A stretch of 64,000 bases of DNA from an uncultured candidatus Porisulfidus sp. (lineage in GTDB: Bacteria; Pseudomonadota; Gammaproteobacteria; Poriferisulfidales; Oxydemutatoraceae), in assembly GCA_965215125.1 (NCBI GenBank), contig OZ244052.1, positions 1,280,001 through 1,344,000 of the forward strand. The letters are read 5' to 3'. The notes under the pieces are model-generated. The model did not search any database and was not told the origin of the DNA. It saw nothing but the letters and a program-made list of their open reading frames with translations. The position numbers were made by a program, and so were the translations under genes. Of this stretch, positions 1 to 12,932 are shown one piece after another (the first letter of the stretch is position 1; every line of letters begins with the position of its first letter).

Positions 1-195
1 TCGCAATGTCGTAAATTGCTTGCCTAGGGTGAAAAAGCTAAACCGGCTCTCGCCATAATACTCGTATTCATCCTTTAACTCAGCTACAAAGTGATTCCAA
101 ACATAACGACACGCTCCGGCAGTTCCGTGTAATTGCCGATGCTTTTCATAGGTCGCTGGATACAAGCGATATCTGATTGTTCTATGAGTTTTCAT
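1..195 (-). CDS. tnpB: RNA-guided endonuclease TnpB, N-terminal part (runs off the window edge)
   Basis: Manual translation MKTHRTIRYRLYPATYEKHRQLHGTAGACRYVWNHF... is 59/65 identical to the N-terminus of the 11239..12432 TnpB. Confidence 0.9.
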   Translation of the reverse strand, partial: MKTHRTIRYRLYPATYEKHRQLHGTAGACRYVWNHFVAELKDEYEYYGESRFSFFTLGKQFTTLR

Positions 196-240
196 CGATG
201 TAATTTAACATTTCTTTGTCAAGTTATCTATATAATTCCC
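1..240 (-). mobile_element. TIR-bounded tnpB element, copy 1 (partial)
   Basis: TIR tgtcaagttatctatataattccc at 217-240 matches the TIR at 12454-12477. The spacing from element end to ATG is the same 45 bp. Confidence 0.85.
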
Positions 241-308
241 CACTCATTTATCCGAGAATTATATACTTTAAGTATGTAAATCATGTTTTACCGATTTCCA
301 CTTTGTTT

Positions 309-9056: not shown

Positions 9057-10895
9057 TTAAGTATTTGTTTTATTTACAGTGCGGTGACTTAGTTTGTGCG
9101 CATCTCCTAAATGTTCTACAAAAGAATCGGCACCGATAAAACCGACGATGCGCATCTGCGGAATTTCTTCGCCTCTGGTGTCGAAAAACAAAATGGCCGG
9201 CGGTCCGAACAAACCGAATTGCTTGAGCATCTCTTCGCTATTCGCATCGGGTATGGTCACATCGGCTTCAAAGACCGAAAAGTCGTTCATTGCTTGTTGC
9301 ACCGAAGAGTTTGCGAAAGTGAAATTTTCAAGTTCTTTGCAACTGATACACCAGTCGGCATAAAAGATGAGTATTGCGGGTTTTTCTACTGCTTCCGCTT
9401 GAGTAATCGCCTCGCGCACCTCTGCTAGTGCGGTGTAGCGCACAAAGCGATGGGGTGTTTCGGATGCGTGTAGGTTGTCCGCCTGTATCATCCAAGGTTG
9501 CAGCCATAGACTGCTTCTCCCGACAATTGCATTCACCGACCATAGCGTTCCGTAAAGAGTCGCGACAAGCGTAATCATTATCACAGACAACCGTGCCGGT
9601 GGGGTGGCAAGTTTTAAGTTCATCAGATAGACGGCAAAGGAAAGTAGTAGTATGCCTGCCAACAGCATCGTCGCATAACCGGTGGCGATGCGGTCTAGAA
9701 GCCATATCGCAAAACCCAGCATAATAAAGCCGAATATGTTTTTGAAGATGTCCAATGCGGGTCCGGGTTTGGGCATTAACTTCGACAGCGAAGTGCCTAC
9801 CAATAAAAGCGGTGCCCCCATTCCTAGGCCTAGAAAGAGCAAGGCGACACCGCCGGTTGCGATGTCACCGCTTTGGGCGACGAATAACAATGCGCCGATT
9901 AGCGGCGGGGTCACACACGGGCTAACGACCAGAGAAGATAAAAGCCCCATTGTTGCAGCACCGTATAGGCTACCTTGCCGGTTTTGACCGACTTGACTTA
10001 AGCGGGTTTGCAGCGATACCGGTAGCCTGAGTTCATAAGTACCGAACATCGCCAATGCGAGCAATACGAAGACTGCGGCGAACGGCACCAGTACCATGGG
10101 TCTTTGGAACCACGCCTGTATATTTTGCCCGTATAGTGCAACCGCAATACCGGCGATACTAAATGTGATTGCCATAGACAACACATAGACGAGAGACAAG
10201 GTAAATGCTTTGTGCGGCGACGCACTTTGTTTTGCCATAGTGATAACCATAGAAAGAATCGGCACCATAGGCAACACGCAGGGTGTAAATGCCAATAGCA
10301 ACCCCATGCCGAAGAAAGCAATTGCCGCAAGCCATAGCTTAGTATCACGCAAGTAGTCGGCAAGCGACTGCTGTTCGGATTTTTGTGCGCTACCGCCGCC
10401 ACCGTCACTCATCGTTGCGCCGCCGACTGGGGTTGCGCCGCCGACCGGTGTGGCATCGGCGAGTAGGAATTGTTTGGTTTGCACGGGGTAGCACAACCCG
10501 GCATCGGCACAACCTTGATAAGAGAGTGTCACCGCCTCGCCTTGAGCTATAAACGGCACCGAAAGCACATCGCGATAGACTTCGGTTTTACCGAAGAAGG
10601 GATCCTCCAGTATCTCGCCTGCCGGCATTTGGTATTGGCTCGGACGATTGCCATCCTGCTCGACAATGGTTGTTTTATCTCGGTAAATATAGTATTCGGG
10701 CGCAATCCGCCACTGTGCGACATAACGCTCGGAAGAGATACGCTCGACACGCAACGCAAACGCTTCGTCGGGTGGCAGGAATTCATCCTGTTGTTGGACG
10801 ATGACAGAGTTCTGCGCAAACACGGCATCTGCCGATACAAGCAAGCAAAGCACCAACAGATTTCTAATGCAAGACATCATTGATTGCAAACCCAC
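9057..10895 (-). CDS. dsbD: Thiol:disulfide interchange protein DsbD
   Basis: QGCADAGLCYP, FTPCVLPM, VSPCVTPPL and ADWCISCKE motifs. Confidence 0.95.
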   Translation of the reverse strand: MGLQSMMSCIRNLLVLCLLVSADAVFAQNSVIVQQQDEFLPPDEAFALRVERISSERYVAQWRIAPEYYIYRDKTTIVEQDGNRPSQYQMPAGEILEDPFFGKTEVYRDVLSVPFIAQGEAVTLSYQGCADAGLCYPVQTKQFLLADATPVGGATPVGGATMSDGGGGSAQKSEQQSLADYLRDTKLWLAAIAFFGMGLLLAFTPCVLPMVPILSMVITMAKQSASPHKAFTLSLVYVLSMAITFSIAGIAVALYGQNIQAWFQRPMVLVPFAAVFVLLALAMFGTYELRLPVSLQTRLSQVGQNRQGSLYGAATMGLLSSLVVSPCVTPPLIGALLFVAQSGDIATGGVALLFLGLGMGAPLLLVGTSLSKLMPKPGPALDIFKNIFGFIMLGFAIWLLDRIATGYATMLLAGILLLSFAVYLMNLKLATPPARLSVIMITLVATLYGTLWSVNAIVGRSSLWLQPWMIQADNLHASETPHRFVRYTALAEVREAITQAEAVEKPAILIFYADWCISCKELENFTFANSSVQQAMNDFSVFEADVTIPDANSEEMLKQFGLFGPPAILFFDTRGEEIPQMRIVGFIGADSFVEHLGDAHKLSHRTVNKTNT

Positions 10896-11191
10896 TTTGC
10901 ATAATCCTCGCTTGCGTCGTCTATGTGCAGAACGATGATTTCCGGTAAATCATAAGTATGCAGTTGCATCAAACGAGTTTTGCATGCCGAGACTTTAGCC
11001 CGCGCCGTTTTAGCACTGAGCAGATATTCTTGGTCGTTGACGACGCGTCCGTCCCAGCGATAAATAGAAGTCATAGGTCCTACAATATGAATACACGCAC
11101 AAAGTTTCTCCTCTATCAGTGTGTCGGCAATACGCTCTGCTTGTTCGTATTTATCTATACTGCTTTGCACCAAAGAAATTAAGTTGTCCAT
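10877..11191 (-). CDS. cutA: Divalent cation tolerance protein CutA
   Basis: LCACIH, SIYRWDG and HTYDLPEII motifs. Canonical position upstream of dsbD. Confidence 0.95.
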   Translation of the reverse strand: MDNLISLVQSSIDKYEQAERIADTLIEEKLCACIHIVGPMTSIYRWDGRVVNDQEYLLSAKTARAKVSACKTRLMQLHTYDLPEIIVLHIDDASEDYAKWVCNQ

Positions 11192-11345
11192 CCGTATTCT
11201 TAGCTAATGGGAATTATATAGGTAACTTGACAGACTTTTTAGCCTGCCTTGCCCACCCTATCTTTTTGACGCTTCATTGACCGACTTGTGTTGCCACTGT
11301 CGCCGTCTCCACACCCGGTTGCAGTACTCCCAGCCGCCAAAACGT
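11189..11345 (-). ncRNA. Candidate TnpB omega-RNA overlapping the tnpB 3' end and the TIR (boundaries approximate)
   Basis: By analogy with IS200/IS605 reRNA. A visible hairpin ATAGG..GGCAGGC-taaaaa-GTCTGTC..CCTAT has its 3' arm inside the TIR. Confidence 0.5.
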
Positions 11346-12477
11346 TTAATGCAGCATTTACATCCGCATTGTCCTCGTGTCCACAATACCGACACTTGAA
11401 AATTGATCGGGTCTTACGGCTTGCTTTATTTACGCTTCCGCATTGATTACAGGTTTGACTCGTATAGGCCGGATTGACCTTTTCTATACATGCCTTGTAG
11501 CTTAAGCATTGCTCCAGTTTATACCAGCCACTCTTTAGTATCTCCCTGTTCAAACCTGATTTTGCCCTCACATTCTTACCCGGGTTGTCTATCGTCCCCT
11601 TCGCCGACTTCGTCATGCCGGTTGTATTCAATCCTTCCATATACACAATGTCGTATTGGTCTGCTATTAACCGGCTGGTTTGATGACACCAATTCGCCCT
11701 CGCAAACCGCTCCGCTTGATACGCTTTCCGTAGCCTATGTTTTGCTAGTTTGCGCCTGTTGCTCCCCTTCACCCGTCTAGCAACCATTCGCTGATAACGC
11801 CTACGCCTTGCCTCCTTACGCTTTAAGTCGGGCAGGTGATACATCGTTCCGTCCGACAATGCCACCTGACCACAATTCCTATCTAGTCCTACTGCTGCCA
11901 CTGGATGCGACCTGCTTGGCACTTCCACTTCATAGGTGATATATGCATACCATTTACCACATTCATACTTGACTTGACCGGATACAAACTTCTCACCTTT
12001 ATACCTATCGCCACCGGCAAACTTCATCCAGCCTAGCTTCTGTATATACAAGTGACAACCCGATATCTTTGCCGATTGATAATTGATCGGGAATGACGGG
12101 CTATGCGTATATTTGCCGTGAAACTTCGGCAATACGTTGTTGCCCTTGAAAAATCCTTTGTATGCTATCTCTATCGGTTGTAATGATGATTTGACTATAT
12201 AAGTGGAATAACCTTGCAACCACTGGTCGCAATACTTTCTTAATGTCGTAAATTGCTTGCCTAGGGTGAAATAGCTAAACCGGCTCTCGCCGTAATACTC
12301 GTATTCGTCCTTCAGCTTGGCTACAAAGTGATTCCAGACATAGCGGCATGCGCCTGCTGTGCCGTGTAATTGCCGGTGTTTTTTCTGTGTCGCCGGATAT
12401 AAATGGTATCTAATTGTTCTATGGGTTTGCATTGATATAATTTAACATTTCTTTGTCAAGTTAACTATATAATTCCC
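11209..12477 (-). mobile_element. TIR-bounded tnpB-only element, copy 2 (1269 bp)
   Basis: 24-bp TIRs with 23/24 match (11209-11232 and 12454-12477). The 8-bp flanks tagctaat/tcgctaat match 7/8. Inserted between cutA and fxsA. Confidence 0.9.
11239..12432 (-). CDS. tnpB: RNA-guided endonuclease TnpB
   Basis: RuvC-I VGLD, RuvC-II VYMEGL, Zn finger CNQC..CRYC and RuvC-III NADVNAALN are all intact. Confidence 0.95.
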   Translation of the reverse strand: MQTHRTIRYHLYPATQKKHRQLHGTAGACRYVWNHFVAKLKDEYEYYGESRFSYFTLGKQFTTLRKYCDQWLQGYSTYIVKSSLQPIEIAYKGFFKGNNVLPKFHGKYTHSPSFPINYQSAKISGCHLYIQKLGWMKFAGGDRYKGEKFVSGQVKYECGKWYAYITYEVEVPSRSHPVAAVGLDRNCGQVALSDGTMYHLPDLKRKEARRRRYQRMVARRVKGSNRRKLAKHRLRKAYQAERFARANWCHQTSRLIADQYDIVYMEGLNTTGMTKSAKGTIDNPGKNVRAKSGLNREILKSGWYKLEQCLSYKACIEKVNPAYTSQTCNQCGSVNKASRKTRSIFKCRYCGHEDNADVNAALNVLAAGSTATGCGDGDSGNTSRSMKRQKDRVGKAG

Positions 12478-12512
12478 TCGCTAATTTTCATGATTTATTA
12501 TATTGTAACGTC

Positions 12513-12932
12513 ATGCGTTTATTACTCGGAATTATTTTTATTGCTCTCCCTCTGCTTGAGATTTATTTATTCATCGTCATCGGTGCCGAAATCGGTGCAT
12601 TATCGGTGATTGCGTTGATATTGATCACTGCGCTCATCGGTATTTTGGTGTTGCAAAATCAAGGATTTGCAACGATGAGAAGATTTAGAGAAACCGTAGC
12701 CCGAGGCGAGCCGCCGGAGATAGCGTTGGCAGAGAGTTTCTTATGTTTGGTAGGCGGATTGTTATTGATCGCACCCGGATTTTTCACCGATGCTGTCGGT
12801 CTTTTGTGTTTGTTGCCGTTGACACGCCGTTTTTTCATTATCAGATATTTGATGCCGTATTTGAATGTTAGACGGGTTTCCCGTTTTAGATGCAAAACAT
12901 CGGGGCGCATCATTGATATAGAAAAAGATTGA
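12513..12932 (+). CDS. fxsA: FxsA family membrane protein
   Basis: PLLEIYLFI and GGLLLIAPGFFTDAVG motifs. Confidence 0.95.
   Translation: MRLLLGIIFIALPLLEIYLFIVIGAEIGALSVIALILITALIGILVLQNQGFATMRRFRETVARGEPPEIALAESFLCLVGGLLLIAPGFFTDAVGLLCLLPLTRRFFIIRYLMPYLNVRRVSRFRCKTSGRIIDIEKD

Follow-up and report, generated by a model that had tools for sequence, protein, structure and literature searches.

TnpB nucleases are understood as homing devices for scarless transposons that move by Y1 or serine transposases, and how such a nuclease could ride on a DDE cut-and-paste element, and cope with the target-site duplication (TSD) that comes with it, is a puzzle. The question is raised by a 1269-bp tnpB-only element between cutA and fxsA in the genome of an uncultured candidatus Porisulfidus sp., at positions 11209-12477 of a 64,000-nt stretch of contig OZ244052.1 (1,280,001 to 1,344,000 of the forward strand). 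This whole stretch is called the window, and positions refer to it unless the genome is named. We consider it likely that here a module of TnpB and its guide RNA (omega-RNA) took the place of the transposase in an IS1595-family DDE transposon, with a terminal inverted repeat (TIR) lying within the RNA scaffold and the guide reading the insertion site.

Boundaries and transposon family

The element, its ends and its neighbours are arranged as follows.

11209-12477, minus strand: whole element, classed as non-autonomous IS1595-type (from its TIR pair, a contig lacking 1269 + 8 nt and empty sites in the same genus)
11209-11232, minus strand: 3' TIR, 24 nt, at the predicted omega-RNA end; plus strand GGGAATTATATAGGTAACTTGACA (compared with IS1595 TIRs of like architecture)
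12454-12477, minus strand: 5' TIR, on the promoter side, with TTGACA inside
11201-11208, minus strand: 3' copy of the TSD, sense ATTAGCTA, predicted to be the first 8 nt past the scaffold (the 8-mer is single in the empty sites of genomes G036, G034 and G035)
12478-12485, minus strand: 5' copy of the TSD, sense ATTAGCGA, with one mutation
1-248, minus strand: 5' end of a further copy (copy 1), with its TIR at 217-240, its TSD at 241-248 (sense AATGAGTG) and the upstream flank GGATA
10877-11191, minus strand: cutA, start codon 11189-11191
12513-12932, plus strand: fxsA

The TIR pattern matches three times in the window and not once in 100 shuffles, and the bases inward of the element's two TIRs are unlike each other. 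An earlier reading of this DNA from its letters and open reading frames (ORFs) alone, hereafter the sequence-only reading, gave the bases 5' of the upstream TSD as TGAAA here and GGATA for copy 1, and both are found as stated. The boundaries and the duplication are settled by empty sites and by one contig. In the same-genus genomes G036, G034 and G035, cutA and fxsA are adjacent with a single ATTAGCTA, and one of four read sets, all examined as assembled contigs, holds a low-depth contig that skips exactly 1277 nt (1269 + 8) and has 8 ambiguous letters at the joint. The genome, a single contig of 2.22 Mb that is 99% complete, carries five full copies of the tnpB element, with identities to the query of 100, 97, 86, 84 and 79%, and seven elements with both TIRs when deletion derivatives are included.

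Some of these derivatives deserve a description of their own. One of 588 bp (genome 1627104-1627691; L006/L008) has kept both TIRs, a TSD without mismatch (AACTAATA) and the entire 3' RNA region; it is a candidate for a guide-RNA element that stands alone. Another form with an internal deletion, its joint at 11347->12174, is present in three of the four read sets. A further deletion derivative, at genome 965778-967676 (L007/L009/L011), holds a nested IS3-type insertion (orfA plus an rve-type orfB) and retains an 8-bp TSD that matches at 7/8 positions. E965 was considered as an autonomous form and rejected, its extra 1.3 kb being the nested IS3-type insertion.

Which transposase could move such an element? 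None of the DDE type is encoded within it, and IS1595 genes lie elsewhere in the genome. Self-BLAST and clustering of repeat proteins were used to find the genome's transposases. Two copies of an IS1595-family DDE transposase are present (genome 285852-286835 and 769578-770561), which match PF12762 and NF033547 (186 against a cut-off of 75), and their TIRs, GGGACTTATAGCGATTAGTTGACA / GGGAACTATAGCGATTAGTTGACA, have the length, the GGGA start and the TTGACA inner box in common with those of the tnpB element. An autonomous partner with the same terminal 12-mer was not found in the genome, where this end occurs only solo, with no partner within 6 kb. Among IS1595 elements of other genomes, L102 (G035) and L103 (G034) carry the TIR GGGAATTATATAG[A/T]TAACTTGACA, which is that of our element to the base, bar one variable position. 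The IS1595 TIRs of L104 and L128 (G024) equal that of E880, a diverged copy in our own genome, at 23/24 bases, and L137 lies in the same genome (G034) as the TnpB loci L020-L022, from whose TIRs its own departs at 2-3 of 24 bases. As for the duplication, a member of the IS1595 family is reported to make A/T-rich 8-bp direct repeats (passages of PMC12561309).

In the 99%-complete genome there is no Y1 transposase (PF01797) and no serine recombinase (PF00239), and the NCBIfam model IS607_TnpB scores 76.5, far under its cut-off of 350. Since IS1595 elements share its TIRs, its TSDs are 8 bp long and a Y1 or serine transposase is lacking, the element is, by these features, a non-autonomous IS1595-type transposon with tnpB in place of the transposase gene; from the shared TIRs and the TSD length we infer that an IS1595 transposase would mobilise it in trans. 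That this is a DDE element had been claimed in the sequence-only reading, and the match of its 24-nt TIRs and 8-bp TSDs to IS1595-family elements bears the claim out. We rejected IS200/IS605, including the IS1341 group of tnpB-only elements, on account of the 24-nt TIRs, the 8-bp TSDs and the missing Y1 transposase; in the relevant part of PMC13565253 that family is defined by a Y1 HUH transposase and subterminal hairpins, with neither TIR nor TSD. IS607 was likewise rejected, as TIR and TSD are present and a serine recombinase was not found in the genome.

Further IS1595-type sequences were seen in passing. A solo end, GAGAATTATATACTTTAAGTATG, lies at 254-277, 5 bp past the TSD of copy 1, and resembles the TIR of a relative's IS1595 elements (L138, L139); about 1.8 kb beyond it, on the minus strand at 2064-2351, is an IS1595-like transposase fragment with 37% identity to aa 50-146. 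The two may be what is left of an earlier IS1595 element. At genome 597941, 1127796, 1174941, 1196843 and 1380536 there are further solo termini, G[G/A]GAATTATATAC, without an inverted partner within 6 kb; their inner sequences resemble the TIRs of the relatives' other TnpB/IS1595 subfamilies. The genome is rich in insertion sequences (two IS110-type kinds, and IS3-, IS256-, DDE_Tnp_1_4- and rve-type), with 11 copies of a putative PD-(D/E)XK (PDDEXK_2) transposase, and some of its ORFs are very large, repetitive and surface-protein-like.

When one genome per species was scanned, 136 relatives of the element came up, 80 of which were kept for analysis. They occur in uncultured metagenome-assembled genomes of Ca. 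Oxydemutatoraceae, Ca. Porisulfidus, other Gammaproteobacteria, Rariloculaceae, Thermodesulfobacteriota, Dadabacteria, Caldilineaceae and Poribacteria. One relative's record names a sponge, and we presume that these host groups are generally sponge symbionts. The terminus GGGA[A/C]TTATA and the 8-bp TSDs are kept down to about 40% protein identity. Such a spread across taxa suggests horizontal movement within one habitat.

The predicted omega-RNA and the tnpB gene

To examine the 3' end of the family, we built a sense-strand alignment of the last 135 nt of 58 non-redundant elements. The pairing model read off it consists of P1 (4 bp), P2 (5 bp) and a pseudoknot in which the P1 loop GGGAAU pairs with the final 6 nt of the element. 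For the window copy, the predicted parts lie as follows, with the pairing found across the family in brackets.

11209-11337, minus strand: predicted omega-RNA scaffold, about 129 nt, overlapping the last tnpB codons (comparative model)
11321-11337, minus strand: P1 hairpin, arms 11334-11337 and 11321-11324, loop GGGAGU at 11326-11331 (100% of cells paired; 2 of 4 pairs change on both sides)
11268-11315, minus strand: long-range stem P2, 11311-11315 with 11268-11272, enclosing a variable hairpin, P3 (99.3% paired; 3 of 5 pairs change on both sides)
11218-11261, minus strand: terminal hairpin P4/P5, with its 3' arms in the TIR
11209-11214, minus strand: 3' strand of the pseudoknot, AUUCCC, the outermost 6 nt of the TIR, with the P1 loop as partner (92.2% of cells paired)

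The predicted pseudoknot thus joins the last 6 nt of the TIR to a GGGAAU loop about 115 nt upstream; in the window copy 11209-11214 would pair with 11326-11331. Over the whole model 96.7% of cells, counted by sequence, are paired, against 83.0% in shuffled alignments, none of which (0/500) reaches the observed value, and sliding the partners by 1-3 columns leaves no more than 51% paired. P2 offers an example of two-sided change, with G-C in 30 sequences and C-G in 27. Within P3, compensatory changes were seen at 7 of 16 predicted pairs in a subset of 24 gammaproteobacterial sequences.

Across subfamilies the MAFFT alignment of the terminal hairpin was too poor for column-wise pair counts, and this part was folded sequence by sequence. 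Downstream of P2, at least 6 nt of the TIR pair with upstream non-TIR sequence in 57/58 sequences (median z -2.85), and the terminal segment is more stable on the sense than on the antisense strand in 54/58, with means of -11.3 vs -6.4 kcal/mol. An equal segment at the 5' TIR served as control (n = 52); its median z is near 0 and the 6-nt mark is reached in 16/52 sense and 31/52 antisense sequences, compared with 50/52 and a z of -2.24 for the 3' end. The fold of the window copy shows the same preference for one strand (sense -41.3 kcal/mol, z -1.97; antisense -24.9, z 0.10).

Could this structure be something other than RNA? It might be a feature of the DNA or of regulation, such as a subterminal repeat bound by the transposase or a terminator, and the flank bias described below would then be a target preference of the IS1595 transposase. 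Hairpins beside TIRs are common in insertion sequences, and the guide RNA is predicted from DNA sequence. However, the fold is limited to one strand, on which G-U pairs contribute, and to one end, which suits an RNA and does not suit a DNA feature bound by the transposase, and P1, P2 and the pseudoknot extend far outside the TIR, covary and match the layout of ISDra2. Together with the insertion sites (see below), this makes the DNA-level explanation improbable in our judgement. A further layout, in which the scaffold ends before the TIR and the TIR itself is the guide, was rejected, because the TIR terminus takes part in the pseudoknot and the two TIRs are followed inward by different bases.

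The RNA reading, which we prefer, goes back to a hairpin drawn in the sequence-only reading. Its arms are placed at 11257-11261 (ATAGG), 11242-11248 (GGCAGGC), 11229-11235 (GTCTGTC) and 11218-11222 (CCTAT), and the GTCTGTC and CCTAT arms overlap or lie in the TIR. The G-U pairs that it invoked are indeed there, two in the inner stem, which can therefore form on the transcribed strand only. In the single-sequence fold the inner stem is kept and extended to 8 bp; for the outer stem this fold prefers a slightly different pairing, GGGUGG/UUACCU. The outer stem of the sequence-only reading is one of two near-equivalent pairings in the window copy, and it agrees with the family-wide pairing AUA(C/G)/(G/C)UAU. 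The broader claim, that the TIR is built into the scaffold, gains support from the covariation of P1, P2 and the pseudoknot on the last 6 TIR nt, and from the inner-TIR hairpin, which 57/58 sequences show and which is confined to the sense strand and to the 3' end. Covariation, which had been named as a check on the hairpin, was obtained for P1, P2 and the pseudoknot; the terminal hairpin itself is backed by per-sequence folding instead.

The 5' part of the predicted scaffold runs within the gene.

11239-12432, minus strand: tnpB ORF, 397 aa, its C-terminus shortened by a +1 G frameshift (assigned by Pfam, NCBIfam and alignment to ISDra2)

The protein matches the Pfam families HTH_OrfB_IS605, OrfB_IS605 and Cas12f1-like_TNB, each above the cut-off, and the NCBIfam model NF040570 (guided_TnpB) with a score of 198.9 (cut-off 100). 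Among the element's ORFs of at least 60 aa, tnpB is the one with a family assignment, and the other two overlap it. Residues 9-376 align with ISDra2 TnpB (E about 5e-28) with the RuvC D/E/D triad conserved, and the triad is invariant in the five full copies of the genome. We take the catalytic residues of ISDra2 TnpB to be D191/E278/D361; counting along the alignment agrees for D191.

Between the stop codon of tnpB (11239-11241) and the inner TIR edge there are 6 nt, as had been noticed earlier, but this spacing is peculiar to the window copy and no trait of the element at large. In the other four full copies of the genome an ORF of 402-405 aa extends into the TIR, with its stop 5 nt short of the element end, and the tail of TnpB spans the RNA hairpin as well as the TIR. 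The frame of the window copy is shifted by an extra G near 11252, which truncates this C-terminal tail; contigs without the extra G occur in all four read sets.

At residues ~270-300 (L002:1546-2763) TnpB carries an insertion, SAKGT..PGKNV..KSGLNR, that is absent in ISDra2 TnpB. It is closely shared by PDB 9j09_A, a chain of 540 aa labelled 'Transposase' (E 2e-29, residues 208-366), and hints at the TnpB subclade from which the protein comes.

Insertion sites and the predicted guide

If the scaffold ends with the TIR, what would the guide read, and what would lie ahead of its target? For the window copy, two features follow from the model, the second concerning the target-adjacent motif (TAM).

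11189-11208, minus strand: predicted guide, sense ATTAGCTAAGAATACGGATG, running into the cutA start codon at 11189-11191 (placed by the scaffold end and the TAM-like signal)
12486-12488, minus strand: TAM-like position in the upstream flank beside the TSD (sense ...AAA, position -1 being A)

The guide string proposed in the sequence-only reading is found as written. To look at the flanks, we rebuilt the empty sites of all elements with TIRs and with TSD copies matching at >=7/8 positions (at least seven of eight), and oriented them by the sense strand of tnpB. This filter was passed by 34/80 loci, by 5/7 of the genome's own elements and by 22/40 further loci from the order, that is 61 sites, 59 of them unique. 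As a control, 18/50 loci of autonomous IS1595 elements passed a like filter.

A purine stands at position -1, directly upstream of the TSD, in 59/59 unique sites (G 38, A 21), whereas the mirror position on the other side has a pyrimidine in 28/59 and the autonomous IS1595 elements have a purine at -1 in 10/18 (Fisher p = 2e-6 vs the TnpB elements). A look at the bases beside the TSD over all copies had been suggested in the sequence-only reading, and this is its outcome. The first TSD base is A in 42, C in 14 and T in 3 of the 59 sites, so that A or C occurs in 56/59 compared with 10/18 in autonomous IS1595 elements; its mirror position has no bias. At -2, C is found in 3/59 TnpB sites vs 5/18 autonomous sites. 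Without the TSD filter, a purine was present at 52/57 unique 5' junctions, and the first flank base was A or C at 68/73 unique 3' junctions. The three same-genus empty sites read purine, then A.

Other features of the site belong to the transposase. TSD positions 2, 3, 6 and 7 prefer A/T, and as this preference is symmetric and common to the autonomous elements, it can be assigned to the transposase. The information content (IC) of TSD positions 4-8 is 0.02-0.53, and the informative positions are -2, -1 and +1 only. The DNA-level explanation raised above would extend the preference of IS1595 elements for A/T-rich targets to the flank bias as a whole; a transposase preference, however, should be mirror-symmetric, and the bias is not, and the 18 autonomous sites are without it. 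A motif on one side, relative to the orientation of the cargo, can come from a TAM requirement but not from the DDE synaptic complex, which is symmetric. A promoter or UP-element as the cause of the upstream bias was rejected by inference, since the signal is specific for purines (G 38, A 21) and not for A/T.

The flank signal fits a TAM ahead of a guide that would start at the TSD or 1-3 nt into it. The near-fixed A at TSD position 1 may be a part of the TAM, a linker like the -1A of ISDra2, or an absorbed nucleotide like that of IS607, and the guide may begin 1-3 nt into the TSD, whose positions 4-8 are, on these IC values, too uninformative for a TAM or for a fixed piece of scaffold. The idea of a guide that consists of TSD plus flank and is aimed at the empty site, put forward in the sequence-only reading, is thus supported indirectly, by a predicted scaffold that ends at the TIR end, by the asymmetric TAM-like signal upstream of the TSD and by the natural empty sites.

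A different arrangement is known in outline from Fanzor1 and Fanzor2 in transposons with TIRs and TSDs (reported in passages of PMC10711439 and PMC13565253). There the scaffold would run through the whole 3' TSD, the guide would begin after it and the 5' TSD copy would act as the TAM. The strongly biased first TSD base (A 42/59) looks as if it were TAM or scaffold, as this arrangement expects. Against it stands a TSD that is 8 nt long and variable, with positions 4-8 mirroring the A/T preference of the transposase, which leaves room for neither a fixed TAM nor a fixed scaffold, and with the informative positions ending at +1. We therefore regard a Fanzor-like layout as unlikely, and keep to a guide that would start at or just inside the TSD.

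It might also be argued that the TnpB copies are passengers, decaying or domesticated, which at present take no part in cleavage or homing, the flank bias being a founder or sampling effect. The C-terminal frameshift of the window copy, the existence of deletion derivatives and the lack of clean TSDs at many related loci would speak for this. On the other side, the D/E/D triad is kept in the genome's five full ORFs, copies that are 97-100% identical point to recent movement, and 59 independent insertions in several phyla make a founder effect unlikely; we give the passenger explanation little credence. A bolder possibility is that TnpB with its RNA helps to choose or license the IS1595 insertion site, a TAM-coupled integration that would place each new copy beside a usable TAM, would amount to a minimal partnership of TnpB and DDE transposase in the manner of CRISPR-associated transposases (CAST) and would create a bias beyond survivorship. 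We see only a slight chance of this, and prefer a nuclease that acts on sites after insertion.

Proposed mechanism, precedents and meaning

In the mechanism that we propose, an IS1595 transposase supplied in trans would recognise the 24-nt TIRs and make the 8-bp A/T-rich TSDs. In the transcript, the outermost 6 nt of the 3' TIR (AUUCCC) would pair with the GGGAAU loop and so form the pseudoknot required by TnpB scaffolds directly ahead of the guide, and the inner half of the same TIR would provide the 3' arm of the last hairpin. The scaffold would end at the element boundary, with the transcript continuing into the 3' TSD copy and the flank, which together would form the guide. Its target would be the empty site, composed of upstream flank, one TSD and downstream flank, with a TAM drawn from the upstream flank (a purine at -1, followed by A or C at the start of the TSD). 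At the occupied site the CC of the TIR end would fall on the TAM positions, where such bases are excluded at -1 and -2, and the element would be spared by its own nuclease. An empty allele could arise by precise excision or be met on a sister chromosome or on an incoming one; TnpB would cut it, and repair of the cut allele from the occupied copy would maintain the element or spread it further. The gain would be limited to insertions with a usable TAM beside them, which would leave a one-sided bias at surviving insertions. The TIRs, the TSD and the empty sites, the cognate IS1595 elements, the covariation of the helices and the flank bias are observed; to these we add, as inferences, transcription, the RNA ends, cleavage, homing and mobilisation in trans.

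Several points weigh against this proposal. The folding of the 3' TIR into an omega-RNA scaffold is supported, but it is known here from DNA comparison alone, and Rfam returned 5 matches, all below the gathering score (E 0.79 or worse). In the pseudoknot one pair only covaries (A-U 33, C-G 13, G-U 6, unpaired 6), and the pair beside it is broken in 13 sequences; another pair has 7 unpaired cells, which are probably a bulged C in one subfamily. Cell counts, moreover, stand for sequences and not for independent events, and the single-sequence minimum-free-energy (MFE) structure of the window copy draws its 5' half unlike the comparative model. In the window copy, the C-terminal tail of tnpB is out of frame. 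Between the resident IS1595 TIR and that of the element identity is no more than ~17/24, so that mobilisation within this genome is putative. The TAM-like signal is short, with ~2-3 informative positions, and in the unfiltered set a purine is missing at 5/57 of the 5' junctions. Loci were dropped for want of a clean TIR pair or TSD (46/80, 2/7 and 18/40 in the three groups), and the control set is small, with 8 of its 18 autonomous sites from one genome.

How does the element compare with systems that are already known? The nearest structural model is the ISDra2 TnpB-omegaRNA of the IS200/IS605 family (PDB 8bf8, 8exa, 8h1j). Protein size is alike, as are a scaffold of ~116-130 nt over the 3' end of the gene, several stems, and a pseudoknot of pre-guide nucleotides with a site ~100-120 nt upstream. 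For ISDra2, excerpts of PMC10097598 describe a 116-nt scaffold with four stems, in which -5..-3 pair with -103..-105 just before the guide. Unlike our element, ISDra2 has a Y1 transposase, neither TIR nor TSD, and a TAM, TTGAT, that is the target site of the transposase (PMC10097598 and PMC13565253, each in part); here we find IS1595 TIRs, an 8-bp TSD and a predicted pseudoknot strand that coincides with the TIR terminus. The TnpB re/omega-RNA of IS607 is alike in that its scaffold takes up a flank nucleotide which the transposase dictates (part of PMC10711439), a role that the A at TSD position 1 could play here, and unlike in its serine recombinase, which was not found in this genome.

Fanzor1 and Fanzor2, of eukaryotes and viruses, are also TnpB-type nucleases in cut-and-paste transposons, with the TIR a predicted part of the scaffold and an RNA that runs across the TSD; they differ in a short fixed TSD taken into scaffold and TAM, and Fanzor1 is without a pseudoknot (so described in portions of PMC10711439 and PMC13565253). 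Our element, by contrast, has a prokaryotic host, an 8-nt variable TSD of which no more than the first base looks fixed, and a predicted pseudoknot that is retained and is formed by the end of the TIR. Among prokaryotes, TnpB branches associated with DDE transposases have inverted terminal repeats, and mobilisation in trans has been suggested for solo TnpBs that share these ends (Altae-Tran et al. 2023, PNAS; PMC10691335, in part); the families named are, however, IS630 in the part of PMC10691335 used here and ISL2, IS630 and IS1031 in that of a 2026 review (PMC13565253), which calls prokaryotic cases of TnpB in DDE elements rare. The available text of these two papers makes no mention of IS1595, of an overlap of scaffold and TIR or of a flank bias, and the supplementary tables of PMC10691335 may list the clade. 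The IS1595 family itself (e.g. ISApl4), with its non-autonomous derivatives, shares the GGG start of the TIR, the 8-bp A/T-rich TSDs and ISXO2-like DDE transposase partners; in our element tnpB and a predicted RNA gene replace the transposase gene, and the one-sided flank bias is absent in autonomous copies.

Full-text literature searches returned no description of TnpB in IS1595-type elements, of a TIR-terminus pseudoknot or of the one-sided flank signature; papers containing both 'IS1595' and 'TnpB' were, by their titles and the beginnings of their abstracts, on other subjects. TnpB in DDE-flanked elements and TIR or TSD in Fanzor scaffolds are already known from the portions of the literature cited, and the element described here is a variant of that kind.

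To conclude, the family is a concrete bacterial case in which a single 24-nt sequence would serve a DDE transposase and, at the same time, a pseudoknot and a hairpin in a predicted guide RNA. The Fanzor solution, a fixed TSD that doubles as TAM and scaffold, cannot apply since the TSD is long and variable. With compact proteins of ~400 aa and predicted scaffold boundaries, the system is practical to test. The one-sided motif at surviving insertions looks like selection by the nuclease itself.

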